64,000 nucleotides of DNA from a virus: IMG/VR virus record IMGVR_UViG_3300023174_000053, positions 64,001 to 128,000 of that record; one strand, given 5' to 3'. Under the pieces are notes generated by a model. That model saw only the letters and a program-made list of their open reading frames with translations. It made no database searches and was not told the DNA's origin. Of this stretch, positions 1,323-10,428 are shown one piece after another (position 1 is the first letter of the stretch; each line of letters starts with the position of its first letter). The position numbers and the translations under genes are program-made.

Positions 1323-3452
1323 TCAATCTTCGTCTTTTGGTTTAAATCTTCCAATTTCAGGCATTGAGTGTTGTTGCTTACCACCTCTCTTAGCAACACT
1401 TGTTCTTACACTATTGATATTATCAAATCTTTGAAGTTCTTTCATTCTTGCCTTTCTTTCCTTAGAACCAACATCAGTTCTTAGTGCTTGTAGTTGTCCC
1501 TCTTCATTATCAAGGAGTTTGCTTTCCTTTCTCTTCATTTTAGCAACAGGAAGAGGTTTCTTTTCTTCCATAATACTTTCAAACCAACCCTCACTCATAT
1601 TGTTGATAATCACATTTGCGTCATCAATTGTATTAGCAAAGTTATTTTCTAAAAGATATGATGCTACAAACTCGTATGCTTCATATGCCTCTCTATTGAG
1701 CATCTTTTTCTCTCTAGGGGTCAAAGCACTTCTTTGTGCTCCTCTTGCTGCCTGCTTTGCTTTTACCGTAGGGTCATTGGACTTATAAGCATATCCGTGA
1801 AGACCAGGATTTGAAGAAGTTGTATCACGGAAATCACCTCTTTGCTTTCTAGCAAGATTTTGTCTTGCATTTTGTTTTGCACTATCTCCATAAGTTGGTC
1901 TGTTTTCAAGTGCAGTTGCTCTATCAGCAGATTCTCCACCTTTTGTGTTTCTAGCAATCGTATTACGAATTGCAACCTCATCATAACCTCTCTTAGCCAT
2001 CGCAGTTGCTTCATTCGCAAGAACTTTCTTACGAATTGCTCCAGCAACTCTATTCCCTGCTTCTTTTGAACCATAACGTTTTGCAGCAGATGCAGCAATC
2101 TTCTTAAACATCAAACCTGGTTTGCCTTCGTCTCTTTCTTCAATATACTCAAGTTCTTCATAAATCTCAAACATATCATCCCAAGTATATCCACTTAGGT
2201 CATAACCTTCTTCAATAAGTTCATTTACCCAAAGTTCAACTTCTTCATTATAAGATTTGTTCTTCACCATAGCAATTGCTTTTGCTTTGGGAACACCAGA
2301 AGCAATCATTCTCGCAATTCTTACATCCGCAAAGTCATTATCACCATCTTCGTCTTGGTCTACTTTTTTCTTTGCTTCGTAGATTGAAGCATAAGCACCT
2401 GCAATTTCTCTAATTGTTTTTGCAGAAGGCCATTGATATGAAGAGGTTACATCTGACTTTTTGATGTCAAGTGCTTTTTTGAGCCTATCGGTTTCACCAG
2501 AAGAAGATGAAGAACCAGAACTTGAAGAAGATGAAGGAGTAGGAGTGCTTGGACCTCTATCATTATCAGCATTTACTCTTGCTGAAATCACATCCTTTCC
2601 TGCTTGTGGTGTTGAACTATTAGCAACCTTTCTTGCAAGTCCTGGATTAGAACGAGCCCAAGTATCCATAGGATTTGCTGAACTTGCTGCTGGTTTTGGT
2701 ACTGCAGAAGCAGCAGGTTTTACTGGTGCTGTAGGTGCTGCTGCTGGTTTTGCAGCTCCGCCAGAACTACTAGAACCACCAGAACCAGAACCAGAACCAC
2801 TTCCCGCAGAATATGCAGAAAGTCCAGTTGTTGAATGTACCGACGAAGAACCCGAAGTTGGTCTAGAACCAGGAGGGGCAGGTTTGCCTTGATCCATTCT
2901 TCCGAGATTTTTCTTACCTTGTGCAATTACTTGTGCAGTGCTACTTCCCATACCTTTTTGTGCAGCAGCATTTCCGCCACCAGCAGAATATGCTGATCTA
3001 TCAGCAGCAGATAGTCCAGAAACACCAGTAGAAGTTACTGATGATCCTTTTGGTGTTGTAGTTCCAAACTGTGGTTTTGTTGCTGCTGGTGGTTTTTGTA
3101 CTGGTGGTTTTTGTATACCAAATGCATTCCCGTATGCAGCAACATCATTTGCTCTATTTTGTGTTCTTTGACTTTGTTGTCTAGCAGAAGCAGCTGTTTG
3201 TTCTGCTCTTTTTTTATCACCAATTTGTTGAGACCTTTGCATAAATGTTTTTGCCGCAGCACTGTCACCAGAAGCCGCAGCTGCTCGTGACAATCCAGCA
3301 TTTCCACCTATTGAGGCAAAGGTATCTCTACCTTGTTGTGCTTGTTGAGCCTTTTGCACTCTATCAGCACTATAAGGTCCTTCATTCAACTGCTCTCCAC
3401 CATAAACACTTGAATATAACTCGTTCAATGCGTCTAAATCTTTTTTATTCAT
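1323..3452 (-). CDS. Low-complexity modular protein, probable internal head/virion protein
   Basis: 709 aa; Gly/Ser/Ala/Pro tracts, acidic helical modules, many L/I-x-E sites, late promoter upstream. Confidence 0.6.
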   Translation of the reverse strand: MNKKDLDALNELYSSVYGGEQLNEGPYSADRVQKAQQAQQGRDTFASIGGNAGLSRAAAASGDSAAAKTFMQRSQQIGDKKRAEQTAASARQQSQRTQNRANDVAAYGNAFGIQKPPVQKPPAATKPQFGTTTPKGSSVTSTGVSGLSAADRSAYSAGGGNAAAQKGMGSSTAQVIAQGKKNLGRMDQGKPAPPGSRPTSGSSSVHSTTGLSAYSAGSGSGSGSGGSSSSGGAAKPAAAPTAPVKPAASAVPKPAASSANPMDTWARSNPGLARKVANSSTPQAGKDVISARVNADNDRGPSTPTPSSSSSSGSSSSSGETDRLKKALDIKKSDVTSSYQWPSAKTIREIAGAYASIYEAKKKVDQDEDGDNDFADVRIARMIASGVPKAKAIAMVKNKSYNEEVELWVNELIEEGYDLSGYTWDDMFEIYEELEYIEERDEGKPGLMFKKIAASAAKRYGSKEAGNRVAGAIRKKVLANEATAMAKRGYDEVAIRNTIARNTKGGESADRATALENRPTYGDSAKQNARQNLARKQRGDFRDTTSSNPGLHGYAYKSNDPTVKAKQAARGAQRSALTPREKKMLNREAYEAYEFVASYLLENNFANTIDDANVIINNMSEGWFESIMEEKKPLPVAKMKRKESKLLDNEEGQLQALRTDVGSKERKARMKELQRFDNINSVRTSVAKRGGKQQHSMPEIGRFKPKDED

Positions 3453-3506: not shown

Positions 3507-4847
3507 TCAATCAATAAACTGTTTCCAGTACTCATAAGAACTCATCTCTTCTCCCATATTCTTTCTTGCTTTTTTACGTGCTCTTTGTGTTTGTTTAGTA
3601 GTTTTTGGAGCAGCTGGTTTATCTCTTATTCCCGTTCTACCAGGCCTAAATGGTTTAGTTTCTGAACCAAGTCTAACAGGAACAATATCACCTTTTTTTG
3701 ATTTGCCTTTTATTTTTCTATCAGGTTTAGATTGAACTACTCGGGTAACAAATGCCCTTGTCCTAGAAGAAGGAGATTCGTTATGAGCTGCTTGGGCCAT
3801 ACTATGTGCCTGTGAAGGAATATCATCGTAAGTATCTATTGAGGATATTCTTTGGCCAGATTTTAATCTATTTTTTATAATAGAAGCAGCAGCTATTGCT
3901 TTTCTTTTTGGTCCAGAAATATTTCTAGGCATATTTCCAGTTAAATGTAGTTTTCCTCCTCCATGAGCACCTAATCCCAACATTCCAACATTTCTTAAAT
4001 GTTGTACCATCATTTGATTTCCACTTTTTGATTTATCATCATTATAATTACTCATTTGACCGCGAGCTGTGACCGCAGATGTTGGATTTATTCTTCTAGG
4101 ATTACTTCTTCTGTGTCCTGGTTGCACATGAGTTATAACAGCACGGTTACCTGAAGTGCCTCTAAGCATACCTGCATCATCAAATGACCCCTTTCCTTTA
4201 AAATCATAATGATGTCCTTTTGGTAATTTATGGTCTGCAAAATCGTGAGAACTAAGATTTTCCTTGGTTTCACCAGAAGGATTAACAACTTTAACTTTAG
4301 ATTTACTTGCCTTAAGAAATGCATCATCTAAATCTGAAAGTTTTACAGCTCTTGAAAGTTTTGCTTCTTCAATATACTCTTCAAGAATGACTGCTAAAAA
4401 TTCACTACTCATATGTTCAAACATATTTTCGGCAGTCTCATAATCTTCTGCGAATTCACTATCAACCAAAGTTTCAATTACATAATCATAAATGTTTTCT
4501 GTTTCTTCTTTTTGTGCTGCGTAATAAGCACCAAGTGCTCTCTTAATTCTTTGCTTCTTACTATCACCTTTGAAGGTTTTGCTCTTTGAATGGACGAAAT
4601 CACTGATTGTCGCACCAGCATCAGCACCTACATCAATCTTTTCATTTACTTCTACTTCTTCTTTTTTCACTGAAAGAAGTTTTGGTCCATTTAACTTCTT
4701 TTCTGCTGCTGCCTTTTCTCCAGGATTTGTAGTTCCTGCAGCAAGATTTGCAATTTTTGCTTTCCTTTTTGCTGCATTATGTCCTGAACCAATATCAAAA
4801 CTTACACCTTCACTGTAAATTCTTTTGAACTTAGAAATTCCAGACAT
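3507..4847 (-). CDS. Basic modular protein, probable internal head/virion protein
   Basis: ORF track; shares an acidic module with 1323..3452; TATAAATA late promoter at 4871-4878. Confidence 0.55.
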   Translation of the reverse strand: MSGISKFKRIYSEGVSFDIGSGHNAAKRKAKIANLAAGTTNPGEKAAAEKKLNGPKLLSVKKEEVEVNEKIDVGADAGATISDFVHSKSKTFKGDSKKQRIKRALGAYYAAQKEETENIYDYVIETLVDSEFAEDYETAENMFEHMSSEFLAVILEEYIEEAKLSRAVKLSDLDDAFLKASKSKVKVVNPSGETKENLSSHDFADHKLPKGHHYDFKGKGSFDDAGMLRGTSGNRAVITHVQPGHRRSNPRRINPTSAVTARGQMSNYNDDKSKSGNQMMVQHLRNVGMLGLGAHGGGKLHLTGNMPRNISGPKRKAIAAASIIKNRLKSGQRISSIDTYDDIPSQAHSMAQAAHNESPSSRTRAFVTRVVQSKPDRKIKGKSKKGDIVPVRLGSETKPFRPGRTGIRDKPAAPKTTKQTQRARKKARKNMGEEMSSYEYWKQFID

Positions 4848-4870
4848 ATGAGTAAGCAATACCTTCTTTT

Positions 4871-4880: not shown

Positions 4881-4903
4881 AAAAAGAGGGGTCGAAACCC
4901 CTC
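4881..4903 (-). terminator. Intrinsic terminator closing the nrdA-nrdB-endonuclease-deamidase unit
   Basis: GAGGGGT-TTCG-ACCCCTC-TTTTT (UUCG loop). Confidence 0.85.
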
Positions 4904-5318
4904 ATATTACATTTAATCCTGGTTTTAATACTTCATATTTTCCATTATTAAAAACAACCCCAGAATAATAGTTTTTACCATTAAACTCACAGAACATATT
5001 ATATTCTCTACTATCTTCAAATGGGGTTATATCTATTAAGTTTCCATAGGTATTTTTCCAGATACTATGGTATATCGCACACCCATAACTTTCATCATCA
5101 ATATCTGTGATTAAATAATAACCACTTATCTTTTTCCCCCCATAAGTATTTGTATAATGATTTACATTATTGTGGCAGTTTGCATCAGCGCATAAAGGTT
5201 TAACTACCACAGGAACTTTCAATAGAATAGAAGAAAAACTACAATACTCCTGAAGTTTTATTACACACTCATCTTCTGGTAGTGATATTCTAAATTTTCT
5301 CTTCAATACTCCATCCAT
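4902..5318 (-). CDS. Putative transglutaminase/papain-like Cys-His-Asp enzyme (candidate protein glutamine deamidase)
   Basis: NC48HNNV...YGG..ISGY...AIYH84SIW...GNLID96ITP: order and spacing of a C-H-D triad; overlaps the endonuclease 3' end by 29 nt. Confidence 0.6.
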   Translation of the reverse strand: MDGVLKRKFRISLPEDECVIKLQEYCSFSSILLKVPVVVKPLCADANCHNNVNHYTNTYGGKKISGYYLITDIDDESYGCAIYHSIWKNTYGNLIDITPFEDSREYNMFCEFNGKNYYSGVVFNNGKYEVLKPGLNVI

Positions 5319-5907
5319 TTGTTCTAGGTCCTTTTCTATTATACTTTATTGCGGCACTCATAGTCGCATATGAAATATTTTGAGATTTACAAAATTCTTT
5401 TAATCCTCCAATAATAACATATTCTTCATTTTCTGGAGAAATAATTTTCCAAGTTTTGGAATTTGAATTATCTTTTCCAAATTTTGGATGTATATTTTGA
5501 CTTATTTTGGTTTTTGTTTCTTGTGATAATTTAACTCCATATCTTGGATTATTTTTTCCTGCTACTTTTTCACTTATTCTTTTCTTTGCTTCTTCTGTGT
5601 GGGTTCTTCCACCAAAACCAGTAGTTTTTTGCCCTCCTGGTTTTCCATCACCACCAAGATTTTGATTTAATAAAACTCCGCCATCACACTCTCTTTTCCA
5701 AAGAGCGATATGTTTAATTTCCAAATCTATTGCTTCTTCTTTAGTTAATCCAGATTTAACTACATATCTCCTATGTCTTGGGGGAAGTATTTCTGCTCCA
5801 TTTCTTCTAGAATGTCTAGCATTAATTCTTCGTGGTTTTCCATATCCAACATAATATGGAGAACTAAAATCTTCCCTCAAATAGTAATAAAGAATATAGT
5901 TATTCAT
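5290..5907 (-). CDS. Free-standing GIY-YIG homing endonuclease with NUMOD3 repeats
   Basis: YILYYYLRED..PYYVGYG..RR, EA..LE..HI, GVLLNQNLGGDG, NUMOD3-like GRTHTEEAKKRISEK and GVKLSQETKTKISQ. Confidence 0.85.
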   Translation of the reverse strand: MNNYILYYYLREDFSSPYYVGYGKPRRINARHSRRNGAEILPPRHRRYVVKSGLTKEEAIDLEIKHIALWKRECDGGVLLNQNLGGDGKPGGQKTTGFGGRTHTEEAKKRISEKVAGKNNPRYGVKLSQETKTKISQNIHPKFGKDNSNSKTWKIISPENEEYVIIGGLKEFCKSQNISYATMSAAIKYNRKGPRTNGWSIEEKI

Positions 5908-5962
5908 TTTGAGACCGAACTTATCTATTATTATTTATATAATATATTAGTTCGGTCTTAAA
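5908..5962 (-). promoter_or_regulatory. Start-region-sequestering hairpin with a late promoter in its loop
   Basis: TTTAAGACCGAACT...TATAAATA...AGTTCGGTCTCAAA immediately before the ATG. Confidence 0.8.
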
Positions 5963-5967
5963 GTCAA

Positions 5968-7152
5968 TTAAAGTTGAAATCCAGCAAATGTGTCTTTTTC
6001 CACATCTTGTTTAATTCCACCAACCACATAGGACTGAACTTGTGTTTGTTGTGGTGCTACTTGAAGTCCCTTAGAACTAATCCAATGCTCCGTCCAAGGG
6101 AGTGGATTGTTTTTAGCAGCAATATCATAAAGTGGTTTAATACCAATAGACTTCATACGACGATTCGCAATCCACTCAACATAACTCCAAAGAAGTTTGT
6201 CGTTCAATCCAATCATTGAACCATCTTTGAACAAATATTCTGCCCACCTCTTTTCCTCATTTACACAATTCTCAAAAGCACCTTTTACCCATTCCTCTTC
6301 TTCCTTAGCAATTTGTTGCATTTCTGGATCATCTCCTTCACGCCATTTATTGAGGATGTTTTGAGTAATAACAAGGTGCTGATTTTCGTCTCTTGCGATG
6401 AGAGAGATAATTTTAGCGGATCCTTCCATAAGTTTGAGTTCACCAAACGCAAACGAGCAAGCGAAAGAGACATAGAATCTGATACCTTCGAGAATATTGA
6501 CATTTGCTACTGCACGATAGAGTTTTCTTTTGAGTTCATATCTTTCATCCTTTGCAGTTCCAGCACCTTCTTGTGCGTGAACCCAAAGATTTGAGTTTCC
6601 ATAATGTTGTGCGGAATTAATAAAGTCATCATAAGCACCAGTTACTGATGATGCCCGTTCAAGAATTTTTTCATTACTCAAAATAGAATCAAAAACTTCT
6701 GTGGGATCAGAGTAAACATTCTTAATAATGTATGTATAGGAACGACTATGAATCATTTCCATAAATTCCCAAACCTTCATACACGCTTCCAATTCAGGAA
6801 GAGAACAATAGGGAGTAAAAGCCATTCCGGGACCACGACCCTGAACTGAATCCAAAAGAATTTGATACTTCAAATTAGAAGTGAAGATGTGCTTTTGTTC
6901 TGGACGAAGAGTTTGATAATCCGCACGATCTTTCTGCAAAGAAACTTCTTCTGGTCTCCAGAAATATCCCAACTGCTGTTGAGTCAGTTTATCAAAGACT
7001 GGATACTTATAAGTATCATATCTTTGAACTCCAAGAGGAGCACCAAAAAACATAGGTTGCTTTTTGGCATCTACCTCTTGAGTATTAAATACGGTCATTC
7101 CTTCAATCATTTTTTCTTTCTCTGCAGTGGTTCTAAATTTTACAGGATTCAC
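5968..7152 (-). CDS. nrdB: Ribonucleotide reductase class Ia beta subunit
   Basis: FWRPEEV, DSVQGRGP, EMIHSRSY, LEGIRFY, RDENQH; the C-tail carries atypical QQTQVQSY; probable GTG start at 7152. Confidence 0.97.
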   Translation of the reverse strand: MNPVKFRTTAEKEKMIEGMTVFNTQEVDAKKQPMFFGAPLGVQRYDTYKYPVFDKLTQQQLGYFWRPEEVSLQKDRADYQTLRPEQKHIFTSNLKYQILLDSVQGRGPGMAFTPYCSLPELEACMKVWEFMEMIHSRSYTYIIKNVYSDPTEVFDSILSNEKILERASSVTGAYDDFINSAQHYGNSNLWVHAQEGAGTAKDERYELKRKLYRAVANVNILEGIRFYVSFACSFAFGELKLMEGSAKIISLIARDENQHLVITQNILNKWREGDDPEMQQIAKEEEEWVKGAFENCVNEEKRWAEYLFKDGSMIGLNDKLLWSYVEWIANRRMKSIGIKPLYDIAAKNNPLPWTEHWISSKGLQVAPQQTQVQSYVVGGIKQDVEKDTFAGFQL

Positions 7153-9430
7153 AATCTTCTTCTCCACCTTCTAAAAGTTCTTTAACTAAATCATCAATAC
7201 TTACTTTATCTTCCTTAACTTCATCAGTCTTATTATCATATGTATTTTGATAATATGCCGTCTTATGCCCCAGTTTAAAACAAGTAAGCATATCTTGTGC
7301 CATTACACTAACAGGAACTTCATTATTGGCATAATTCTCTGGATTATACGACCAGTTTCCAGAAATCGCTTGATCGAAGAATTTCTGCATAACTGCAACA
7401 ATATTAATATACCCACGATTGCTAGGCATATCCCAAAGCAACGTATAGTTGTTTTTAAGATGTTGATACTGTGGAACAATCTGTTTGAGAGGTCCTTTTT
7501 TAGATTTCTTAATTGATAAGAATCCACGAGGAGGTTCAATTCCATTAGTTGCATTTGAAACTACAGAACTTGATTCTGATGGCATTTGTGCTGTAAGAGT
7601 GGAGTGTCTCAATCCAAACTCTTTAATTGACTGTCTTAGTACTTCCCAATCGTGCTGAAGAGGAACAGAAGACACTTCATCTACATCTTTCTTGTAAGTA
7701 TCAATAGGAAGAATACCCTGCGAATATTTAGTACGATTGAAATATTCGCAAGCACCCTTTTCTTTAGCAACTTCATTTGATGCTTTGAGAAGAAAATATT
7801 GGAATGATTCAGACAATTGATGAACTGCATCCCAAGCCTCTTGAGTATCATAATTAAACCCAAGTTTAGCAAGATAATGTGCTAAACCAATATAACCAAC
7901 ACCCAAAGACCTACGTGCTTTAGTTCCAATCTCTGCAGCAACTATAGGATAGTTTTGATAATCAATCAATTCTTCCAAACCACGAACAGAAAGATTGCAA
8001 AGATCCTCAAACTCTTCATCTGATTTTACTTTACCGACATTAATAGCAGAAAGAATGCAAAGTGCAATCTCACCATTAGGGTCATCAATATGTTGAAGTG
8101 GGATTGTTGGAAGTGTAATCTCTTGGCAAAGATTACTCATTTCAACCTTATCAGTAAAGGATGAATGAGAATTACAATGGTCGATATTCATAATGTAAAT
8201 ACGACCTGTTTCAGCACGTTCTTTCAGGAGGTCCAAAAAGAGTTCTTGAGCTCCGATAGTCTTTCTAGGAATAGATTCATTTCGTTCTGCATCAACATAA
8301 AGATCGTCAAATCTATCAGTCCCAAAAGCATCATAAAGACCAGGAACTGCGTGTGGAGAGAAAAGTGAGATTTCTTCGTTTTTAATAAATCGTCCATAGA
8401 ACAGTTTAGAGATTTGGATACTGTAATCTAACTTACGAACACGATTATCCTCCGTACCCTTGTTGTTTTTTAAGACTAGAATGTCTTCGATTTCTTGATG
8501 CCAGATAGGAAAGTGGACTGTAGCAGAACCACCTCTGATGCCGTTTTGTGTGCAGCATCGCACAGTTGCCTCAAACTTTTTAAGGAAGGGGACCACACCT
8601 GTGTGCTGTACCTCTCCGCCTCTGATTTTAGAGTTGATGCCACGGATGCGACCTGCGTTGATGCCGATGCCTGCCCTTTGAGCAACATACCTCCCAATAG
8701 CCATATCACTACTGAAGATGCTATCGAGGGTGTCATCAACATCAACAAGAACACAACTTGCAAATTGACGAAGTGGTGTTCTAACTCCTGCCATAATGGG
8801 AGTTGGGATGTTGATTTTGTGTTTTGAGATTGCGTCATAATACCTCTTCACATATGAGAAACGTGTTTCTTTTGGATATCTAGCAAAAATAGTAGCAGCA
8901 ATCATCATATACATGAACTGTGGAGTTTCATATACTTGACCACTACTGCGATCTTGAACCAAATACTTATCAACTACTTGACGAAGACCAGCATAGGTGA
9001 AAAGATAATCTCTACTATGCTTGATATAACTACCAAGTCTATCAAGTTCTTCTTTCGTATAATTGGTCAAAATTTCTGGATCATAAACTCCAACATCTAC
9101 ACAACTATTAATGTGTTCGACAAAATCAGGATGATCTTGAACTCTTCCGTACAAAGATTTTCTTACAGAAAACAGAAGTAGTCTTGCTGCAACAAACTGA
9201 TAATTTGGATTATCCAAATCAATTAAATCAGAAGCAGAACGAATTAAAATCTCCTGAATTTCTGCTGTGGTGATTCCATCATAAAATTGAATACCAGATT
9301 GCATCTCTACCTGTGATGCAGAAACACCAGAGAGGTCTCTACATGCCTCCTCAACCATCAAGTGAAGTTTATTTAGATCAAGAGGTTCATTATCACCACT
9401 TCTCTTAACTACTTTTGTACCGTTGCTCAT
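7133..9430 (-). CDS. nrdA: Ribonucleotide reductase class Ia alpha subunit
   Basis: ATP-cone (VVKRSG), PTPIMAG, SCVL, SNLCQEI, AYYQNT, C-terminal CESC. Confidence 0.98.
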   Translation of the reverse strand: MSNGTKVVKRSGDNEPLDLNKLHLMVEEACRDLSGVSASQVEMQSGIQFYDGITTAEIQEILIRSASDLIDLDNPNYQFVAARLLLFSVRKSLYGRVQDHPDFVEHINSCVDVGVYDPEILTNYTKEELDRLGSYIKHSRDYLFTYAGLRQVVDKYLVQDRSSGQVYETPQFMYMMIAATIFARYPKETRFSYVKRYYDAISKHKINIPTPIMAGVRTPLRQFASCVLVDVDDTLDSIFSSDMAIGRYVAQRAGIGINAGRIRGINSKIRGGEVQHTGVVPFLKKFEATVRCCTQNGIRGGSATVHFPIWHQEIEDILVLKNNKGTEDNRVRKLDYSIQISKLFYGRFIKNEEISLFSPHAVPGLYDAFGTDRFDDLYVDAERNESIPRKTIGAQELFLDLLKERAETGRIYIMNIDHCNSHSSFTDKVEMSNLCQEITLPTIPLQHIDDPNGEIALCILSAINVGKVKSDEEFEDLCNLSVRGLEELIDYQNYPIVAAEIGTKARRSLGVGYIGLAHYLAKLGFNYDTQEAWDAVHQLSESFQYFLLKASNEVAKEKGACEYFNRTKYSQGILPIDTYKKDVDEVSSVPLQHDWEVLRQSIKEFGLRHSTLTAQMPSESSSVVSNATNGIEPPRGFLSIKKSKKGPLKQIVPQYQHLKNNYTLLWDMPSNRGYINIVAVMQKFFDQAISGNWSYNPENYANNEVPVSVMAQDMLTCFKLGHKTAYYQNTYDNKTDEVKEDKVSIDDLVKELLEGGEEDCESCKI

Positions 9431-10428
9431 ACTCGTTTCCATCCAATAAGTTTTGCTTTTGCTTCTAGTCCCATATAAGTATTTTCCTTGATGATTTTTG
9501 GGGCATCAATTCCTGATAGGATCATATCATTAATATCCTTTTCTTTCAAGTCATTTGGCCAAATGACAATTGGAAATCGCATTTGTATTGCTTTTTCCAT
9601 TCTATCAACAATTTGTTTATTCCGTTTTTCATTATCATATACCATTACAAAATCTGTTCCAAAGTTAGAAACAAAAAACATTTTGTCAATGTCTGCACCA
9701 ACCATAGCAATTGAATTATCTAAAAACATACTATCAAATGGTCCTTCAACAACATAAACAGTTTTATCGTAATCTGGTTTATCCAAATTGTAAATTTTTG
9801 GATGTGTATCATTAAGAATAATTGTAATGTATTTTACCTTTGAGTTTTTATTTAAACTACGACCTTGAAATCCAAATATTTCTCCTTTATTGATTAAAGG
9901 AATAATGATTCGTGGTTCGTCCTTTTCTACTTTATCAAATGTGTGTTTTTGAGTATTCGTCCATTCTTTAAACTTCTCACAGAAATACAATTCACGCAGA
10001 TAGTTGTTGGGTATCTTTCTATCTTCTAGGTATTTTCTTGCGGAGTGTTCTTTATTTAGTTCTGCGATAGTAGGTAGGTCAAATGCCTTTTTTGAAAAGT
10101 TTGGTTTCTCAAAATTAAACTCTGGGTTCTTTGTTTGTGATCCTCTTCCTGTTATTCCCTCTTTATATCTCTCCATTACATACTGGTCGTAAAGAACAGT
10201 ATCCATATCTTTTAGAAAGTTTGTAAAAGTTCTAGAAGTCCCACAATTATGACATTTGAAATTGTGATCATTCTTTAATTGGTAAATATACCCTCTTGTT
10301 TTACTCTTTGTCTTTTGACTATCACCACAGTAAGGACACCGAAAGTTATAAAGACCTTCTTTCTTCTTAGCAAACTTATCCAGTCGGGAAGAAACCAACC
10401 CGATATATTTGGAATCAACAAAACTCAT
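9427..10428 (-). CDS. DNA primase (gp61)
   Basis: Zn finger CPYCGD...CHNC; TOPRIM VVEGPFD, YDNE, KDIND. Confidence 0.95.
   Translation of the reverse strand: MSFVDSKYIGLVSSRLDKFAKKKEGLYNFRCPYCGDSQKTKSKTRGYIYQLKNDHNFKCHNCGTSRTFTNFLKDMDTVLYDQYVMERYKEGITGRGSQTKNPEFNFEKPNFSKKAFDLPTIAELNKEHSARKYLEDRKIPNNYLRELYFCEKFKEWTNTQKHTFDKVEKDEPRIIIPLINKGEIFGFQGRSLNKNSKVKYITIILNDTHPKIYNLDKPDYDKTVYVVEGPFDSMFLDNSIAMVGADIDKMFFVSNFGTDFVMVYDNEKRNKQIVDRMEKAIQMRFPIVIWPNDLKEKDINDMILSGIDAPKIIKENTYMGLEAKAKLIGWKRV

Follow-up and report, generated by a model that had tools for sequence, protein, structure and literature searches.

The nrdB locus of an uncultured cyanophage

The window analysed here comprises 64,000 nucleotides of IMG/VR virus record IMGVR_UViG_3300023174_000053 (positions 64,001 to 128,000), and our subject is a two-gene cassette that lies directly behind its nrdB gene, which encodes the β subunit of class Ia ribonucleotide reductase (RNR). 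The source record is 171 kb long and 89% complete and belongs to an uncultured cyanophage, the RNR genes of which have their closest counterparts in T4-like myoviruses of Synechococcus and Prochlorococcus. Four genes on the minus strand form one unit. The open reading frame (ORF) of nrdA (7133-9442), for the class Ia RNR α subunit, has relatives in cyanophages that are annotated nrdA. It is followed by nrdB (5968-7167; Pfam Ribonuc_red_sm, 2.5e-54), by the gene for a free-standing homing endonuclease of 205 residues (5290-5907) and by the gene for CHD (4902-5318), a 138-residue Cys48-His84-Asp96 protein of no described family and a putative NrdB-tail Gln deamidase, with the C48 codon at 5175-5177. 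The endonuclease gene is located 60 nt past nrdB and overlaps the CHD gene by 29 nt. An intrinsic terminator (4886-4903, minus strand), consisting of a 7-bp stem with five GC pairs and a T-run, begins within the CHD stop codon; it is single and strong and closes the nrdA-nrdB-endonuclease-CHD unit. This layout of an endonuclease gene and an overlapping 138-residue ORF before one terminator had been described in a first-pass annotation of the window and is confirmed here, as are the sequence and position of the NrdB tail given below.

The radical-transfer tail of this NrdB reads APQQTQVQSY (6028-6057, minus strand; first residues of the tail peptide, GLQVAPQQTQVQSY). The E. coli reference tail is APQEVEVSSY, and by this comparison residues 350, 352 and 354 of the phage protein are Gln (6046-6048, 6040-6042 and 6034-6036, respectively), encoded by CAA, CAA and CAG where relatives have GAA or GAG. 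The Glu expected at position 350 of a class Ia NrdB is therefore absent, and Y356 (6028-6030) is present. E350 sets the β tail on the α subunit via K154, S647 and bound waters (PMC11482829), and E350 and Y356 are the two tail residues essential for turnover (PMC8463856).

Substitution of E350 in E. coli disrupts radical transfer (PMC11482829), and a Gln-tailed NrdB might accordingly be a dead or decoy protein in a phage that draws its deoxyribonucleoside triphosphates from another source. We regard this as very improbable, as nrdB is present in a single copy in the 171-kb record, and the residues of the cofactor and of the radical pathway are kept in Gln-type NrdB and its NrdA partners even between deeply diverged phages. 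In an alignment with E. coli NrdB, all 64 of 64 sequences of the Gln type retain W48, E52, D84, E115, H118, E204, E238 and H241 (metal ligands), Y122 and Y356. The NrdA proteins of Gln-type phages retain K154 (29 of the 30 aligned at that column) and S647 (32 of 32), and C225, C439, C462, Y730 and Y731 are also kept. Alignments of Gln-type with Glu-type proteins revealed no column elsewhere in the α or β subunit that tracks the type of tail. With K154 and S647 kept and no compensating column, the α pocket that receives the E350 carboxylate is not adapted to an amide.

At the DNA level, only the first bases of the recoded codons separate 77 Gln-type from 140 Glu-type sequences over the 54 nt around the tail, and the wobble positions near the tail are equally variable in the two classes. 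Codon reassignment or RNA editing of CAA and CAG was considered and set aside as unparsimonious, the adjacent invariant Q349 having the same codons.

The endonuclease comprises a GIY-YIG-like nuclease domain, NUMOD3 and a C-terminal DNA-binding domain. Pfam detects only NUMOD3 (1.5e-12), with no match for residues 1-100 even at E 10, and the protein falls in phrog_314 (homing endonuclease). In an alignment with canonical GIY-YIG relatives, Y7, Y19, G21 and E63 are invariant and an Arg column is near-conserved, so that the identification as a GIY-YIG/NUMOD3 endonuclease made in the first-pass annotation holds, NUMOD3 by Pfam and the GIY, YIG, Arg and Glu elements by alignment. The model of the protein has the order β-β-α-β-α, with a predicted local distance difference test score (pLDDT) of 66, and its best Foldseek matches in the PDB are the DNA-binding parts of I-HmuI and I-TevI, the nuclease half being unmatched. 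The relatives that are fused to CHD match LEM-3_GIY-YIG in Pfam. At least five different GIY-YIG nuclease domains occupy this slot, joined to one common C-terminal DNA-binding module.

The start codon of the endonuclease is enclosed in an intergenic hairpin (5902-5968, minus strand) with a fold energy of -18.7 kcal/mol (z -4.9), the apical part of which contains TATAAATA (5932-5939). The hairpin arms and TATAAATA are kept, with compensatory changes, in 23 distinct relatives. Homing endonuclease genes of T4 are controlled by a late promoter and by a hairpin that sequesters the start site, and the hairpin observed here, with its late-promoter-like TATAAATA over the start codon, looks like a control of this kind.

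Co-occurrence of Gln tails and CHD

Among the 80 NrdB loci of IMG/VR closest to that of the window, 77 lack the cassette and have tails like APQETEVESY, and the three with Gln tails all carry the endonuclease and CHD. We examined 80 of the 101 CHD relatives found, and every one with upstream flank present sits just past nrdB. Most of the tails encoded there read APQQTQVQSY and some read APQETQVQSY, with two that are fully Glu-type. A DNA-pattern scan of viral contigs for the Gln pattern Q-x-A-P-Q-Q-[ST]-[QE]-[IV]-x-x-Y gave 118 contigs. A repeated gut-metagenome element (L419-L534, many), a chance match to the DNA pattern in a non-coding frame that reads QDAPQQCQMPDY and is unrelated to nrdB, was filtered out. 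A same-strand ORF of the CHD family lies just past nrdB in 111 of the 111 Gln-tail contigs with enough downstream flank; the remaining seven end within 490 nt and have no CHD match. The matching Glu pattern was found in 119 contigs, 93 of which extend at least 1.3 kb downstream, and none of these 93 carries CHD anywhere. The first-pass annotation had proposed that Q-type tails go with the Cys-His-Asp gene and E-type tails lack it, which is what these counts (111/111 versus 0/93) bear out; Q-type tails common without the gene were not seen, the single ambiguous contig being L484, discussed below.

Metagenome and genome collections provided 75 further Gln tails with CHD and one contig that ends in the first CHD residues. 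A search of 185,579 species genomes gave one match, on a phage-like contig that carries DnaB, nrdAB, CHD and gp25 and was binned in a Flavobacteriaceae metagenome-assembled genome that has its own nrdB elsewhere. A tblastn search of 50,697 deposited phage genomes with CHD found no real homologue, and CHD is therefore not known from any cultured isolate of that collection.

All sampled relatives without CHD have Glu at both position 350 and position 352. CHD is found with Glu350 at 2 fully Glu-type loci and at 16 loci that have E350 but Q352, and no Gln tail without CHD was seen among the CHD relatives and tail variants compared. Such an asymmetry is expected if a Gln tail needs CHD and a Glu tail does not.

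One alternative is that the tail stays Gln and is tolerated by this RNR lineage. The G to C changes would then mark an immune allele only, and CHD would ride along with the endonuclease or assist it, linked to the tail solely through its nearness of 0.1-0.7 kb. The genes are indeed adjacent, co-conversion tracts span tail and cassette, and many phages encode CHD as a fusion with GIY-YIG/NUMOD3; yet recombination that breaks within the tail, giving E350/Q352 forms, never parts a Gln tail from CHD, and triad-intact CHD persists with Q350 in lineages without an endonuclease. In other class I subclasses, Q349 and E350 are not always present (PMC8463856), which would favor tolerance; however, the wobble positions are saturated, and still E350 and E352, one base change away from Gln, never drift to it in the sampled relatives that lack CHD, and the α residues K154 and S647 are unchanged. 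We thus consider a tolerated Gln tail rather unlikely.

Anatomy and repeated exchange of the cassette

The closest Gln/Glu pair, L186 (Gln) and L017 (Glu), is homologous through nrdB, after which L186 contains an insert of ~1.06 kb with the endonuclease and CHD. Past this insert, the final 34 nt of nrdB occur once more in L186, in a copy that is identical to the Glu-type genome. Such a fossil, made of the last 11 nrdB codons, is located behind 24 distinct window-type cassettes; the window itself has none because its terminator directly follows CHD. In 20 close pairs, mismatches rise from ~5 to ~12-13 per 50 nt across the last 100 nt of nrdB, from the tail codons on.

Three genomes with a fusion-type cassette (L185, L211 and L252) harbor a fossil behind the fusion ORF that runs from codon 349/350 to the stop and is still Glu-type. 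It reads ETEISSY or ETEITSY, whereas the live upstream copy reads QQTQISSY or QQTQITSY. Live and fossil copies of L211 differ over ~70 nt by two G to C changes and one wobble base only, and L185 shows, in addition, a change of codon family at both serine codons next to the Gln codons. These fossils are natural before-and-after records of recoding within one genome, and since the fossil ends are Glu-type and the live copies Gln-type, the Glu tail is ancestral in all three. The element delivered the recoded end, with the junction on the recoded codons. The Glu tail is ancestral and the RNR is otherwise unchanged.

The exchange has occurred many times. In a tree of the NrdB core, from which the tail was left out, at least 40 changes of the Gln state are counted, and 39 for the presence of CHD. 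Thirteen independent pairs fall on supported branches; tail and CHD changed together in 12 of these and oppositely in none (p ~5e-4). Identity of the NrdB core reaches 99% in some pairs of a Gln-type and a Glu-type sequence. What emerges is a mobile cassette and a strict, asymmetric linkage between CHD and the Gln tail.

Three arrangements are observed. The first is nrdB-endonuclease-CHD, as in the window. In the second, found in many phages, nrdB is followed by a CHD-GIY-YIG-NUMOD3 fusion, and the third is nrdB-CHD with the endonuclease absent. Divergent CHD homologues with 42-50% identity, and more distant ones (P0003, P0006, P0007, P0031, P0036 and P0008), are each located directly past a very different nrdB, all with Q350, and several of these divergent loci have no endonuclease. 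The linked cassette of endonuclease and enzyme postulated in the first-pass annotation therefore stands insofar as it is mobile and carries a recoded nrdB end, but the pair of Gln tail and CHD also persists without the endonuclease, and the two cassette proteins are fused in many phages. Loci L403-L405 represent an nrdB-CHD-glutaredoxin phage in which nrdA occupies three ORFs with Hint/intein signatures, and thus a second kind of selfish element is found in the same operon.

These arrangements bear on an alternative in which CHD does deamidate the tail, but as a pro-enzyme switch that benefits the host and times RNR activation, as opposed to a selfish device for immunity and addiction, the endonucleases being later squatters. 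Arrangements with CHD only occur in diverse phages, and the at least five unrelated GIY-YIG nuclease domains in the slot imply that endonucleases turn over while CHD stays, as this alternative would have it. The fossils, on the other hand, show the Gln-coded end arriving with an endonuclease-bearing element and a junction at codon 349/350, the switch of serine codon family beside the Gln codons of L185 looks like recoding at the DNA level, and a Glu tail without CHD serves most phages of these clades well. A beneficial switch thus appears unlikely.

The CHD protein and the proposed repair of the tail

The CHD family, as defined by a full HMMER search, comprises 139 clusters at 50% identity. 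C48, H84 and D96 are the sole invariant columns among 45 homologues with identity down to 20%, which argues that the pattern is not due to chance. In the 139 cluster representatives, the Cys is kept in 137, the His in 136 and the Asp in 134, most exceptions being fragments. The transglutaminase/papain-like order of these residues that had been noticed in the single window protein is thus invariant or near-invariant throughout the family. The AlphaFold2 (AF2) model of CHD has a pLDDT of 92.9 and a core of ~90 residues. C48 starts a helix (48-59), H84 lies in a strand (75-88) and D96 in another (94-96), a predicted placement like that seen in papain- and transglutaminase-like thiol enzymes. Structure matches to such enzymes are weak, with Z 3.0-3.3 for PeiW, TglA, staphopain C and PeiP, and 2.6-2.7 for LapG and NAT. 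Metal binding by C48, H49, H84 and D96 was also considered and set aside; residue 49 is Phe or Tyr in 20 of the 139 representatives.

Protein-glutaminase belongs with the transglutaminase/papain-like Cys-His-Asp hydrolases. As predicted by the model, CHD would share with these enzymes the order of Cys, His and Asp, a Cys that opens a helix and a His and an Asp in the strands after it, and their chemistry suits a Gln amide. CHD differs from them in that its domain is much smaller, and comparisons of sequence, profile and structure gave no significant similarity. The presumed substrate encodes Gln exactly where orthologues have a functional Glu, and the CHD gene is linked to that state.

Cys-His-Asp thiol enzymes also include transglutaminases, isopeptidases and proteases, the kinds of enzyme to which the weak fold matches belong. 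CHD might then act on the Gln tail by another chemistry, regulating RNR either by cross-linking the tail to a Lys, for example K154 of the α subunit, or by cleaving it. We find this quite improbable. The β tail must bind and leave α in each turnover (PMC8463856), so that a covalent link would stall the enzyme, and Y356 and the C-terminal α-binding residues are intact, which argues against cleavage. Moreover, the replacement is one-for-one, Gln for Glu, and includes the non-essential position 354, a pattern that fits the restoration of Glu and not a new linkage.

We favor, with modest confidence, a model in which the cassette swaps in an endonuclease-immune, Gln-coded nrdB end and CHD deamidates the product back to Glu. 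The mobile cassette at the 3' end of the sole nrdB would supply its own version of that end and displace the original; in this version, the codons for E350, E352 and E354 (E. coli numbering) have been changed from G to C and specify Gln. Its GIY-YIG endonuclease would home into the Glu-coded site of naive phages, as the fossil junctions at codon 349/350 and the co-conversion tract indirectly suggest, and the Gln-coded copy would be immune to it. Immunity at the Glu codons would require an amino-acid change, since Thr, Val, Ile and Ser codons allow silent changes but a Glu codon allows none at its first base; a repair enzyme on the same element could reverse such a change. After translation, the CHD thiol enzyme, by means of its Cys-His-Asp triad, would hydrolyse the side-chain amides of the tail Gln residues and restore Glu for the α subunit. 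RNR activity would then depend on CHD, and this dependence would account for the persistence of CHD with a Gln tail where the endonuclease has been lost. The more pointed claim, that a homing element recodes essential catalytic Glu codons to Gln and carries the deamidase that restores them, leaving an essential enzyme dependent on its parasite, seems to us possible but slightly short of an even chance.

Several observations weigh against this model. Adjacent genes are physically linked, from which some co-occurrence follows, and the frequent fusion of CHD to the endonuclease could mean instead that CHD assists the nuclease in its task. In the Gln-tail contig L484, the endonuclease runs into unrelated sequence; the case is ambiguous, and the contig is probably a chimera. 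L104 and L095 carry an intact endonuclease and CHD with fully Glu-type tails (APQETEVESY and APQETEQETY, respectively); they could be revertants, recombinants or assembly chimeras. The most distant members of the CHD family keep the triad and do not adjoin nrdB. As for the fold, glyoxalase-type modules match the CHD model with Z up to 3.9, equal to or above the thiol enzymes, and a Foldseek search of the PDB with the model returned nothing below E 0.18. Compared by hhalign with a Transglut_core alignment built from 14 genomic instances, the CHD family reached a probability of 0.3%. No Pfam family matches CHD at E up to 10, CheD included; its only match in PHROGs is a family of unknown function, and a profile search of PDB sequences gave a chance match only. 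The ESM Atlas yielded unnamed clusters and a weak YunG lead below noise level. The papain-like fold put forward in the first-pass annotation is thus weakly supported, with a Cys at a helix N-terminus in the confident AF2 model, Z of 3.3 at most for the thiol enzymes, no Foldseek match and the hhalign result above.

The proposed system is reminiscent of several known ones. In Actinobacteria, Pup is encoded with Gln where its active form needs Glu; the deamidase Dop converts it, and related organisms encode Glu directly. The likeness lies in a Gln-encoded protein with a dedicated, here putative, deamidase and relatives that have Glu. Dop, however, is ATP-dependent, has a glutamine-synthetase-like fold and acts on a C-terminal residue, with no link to a mobile element or nuclease. 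Chemoreceptors likewise contain genome-encoded Gln at sites that function as Glu and are deamidated after translation by CheD, a thiol deamidase, or CheB, but the substrate there is a signalling protein and not an essential catalytic residue, and that system is neither selfish nor mobile.

Free-standing homing endonucleases in the RNR genes of T4-like phages (mobE, seg, I-TevIII) also reside beside nrdB, with co-conversion of the flank and a resident allele that differs at the target. Their immunity relies on silent or tolerated polymorphism, whereas here essential Glu codons differ, and the element brings, besides an extra enzyme gene, a substitute for the end of the gene. Inteins and group I introns in RNR genes are selfish elements at conserved sites of essential genes, too, and their damage is undone after transcription or translation. 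With these, the product is restored by self-excision; in the system proposed here nothing would be excised, and side chains would be edited in trans.

No paper linking RNR, deamidation and homing endonucleases was found in the library searched. If the model is true, selfish DNA would have a third way, after introns and inteins, to repair the gene that it invades. Should CHD deamidate the tail, RNR would be the first essential metabolic enzyme to need side-chain editing by a mobile-element gene, CHD would found a new family of small protein deamidases, and there would be a new answer to how a homing endonuclease can target invariant catalytic codons while sparing its own host gene. Annotation would be affected as well, since Gln-tailed NrdB proteins from viromes would be taken for inactive otherwise.

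Because triad-bearing distant members sit elsewhere, the nrdB-linked CHD proteins represent one branch of a wider, undescribed superfamily. Three such members (L572, L573 and L574) are ~210 residues long, keep the triad and are located away from nrdB; two of them (L573 and L574) adjoin a phage integrase and an unknown protein of 372-441 residues. Distant Cys-His-Asp superfamily members in other mobile contexts may do for other proteins what CHD is proposed to do for NrdB.

Downstream of the cassette, the minus strand of the window encodes two large ORFs. The nearer one (3507-4859, 450 residues) has no family match, and the other (1323-3452, 709 residues) contains long low-complexity stretches rich in Ser, Gly, Ala and Pro.

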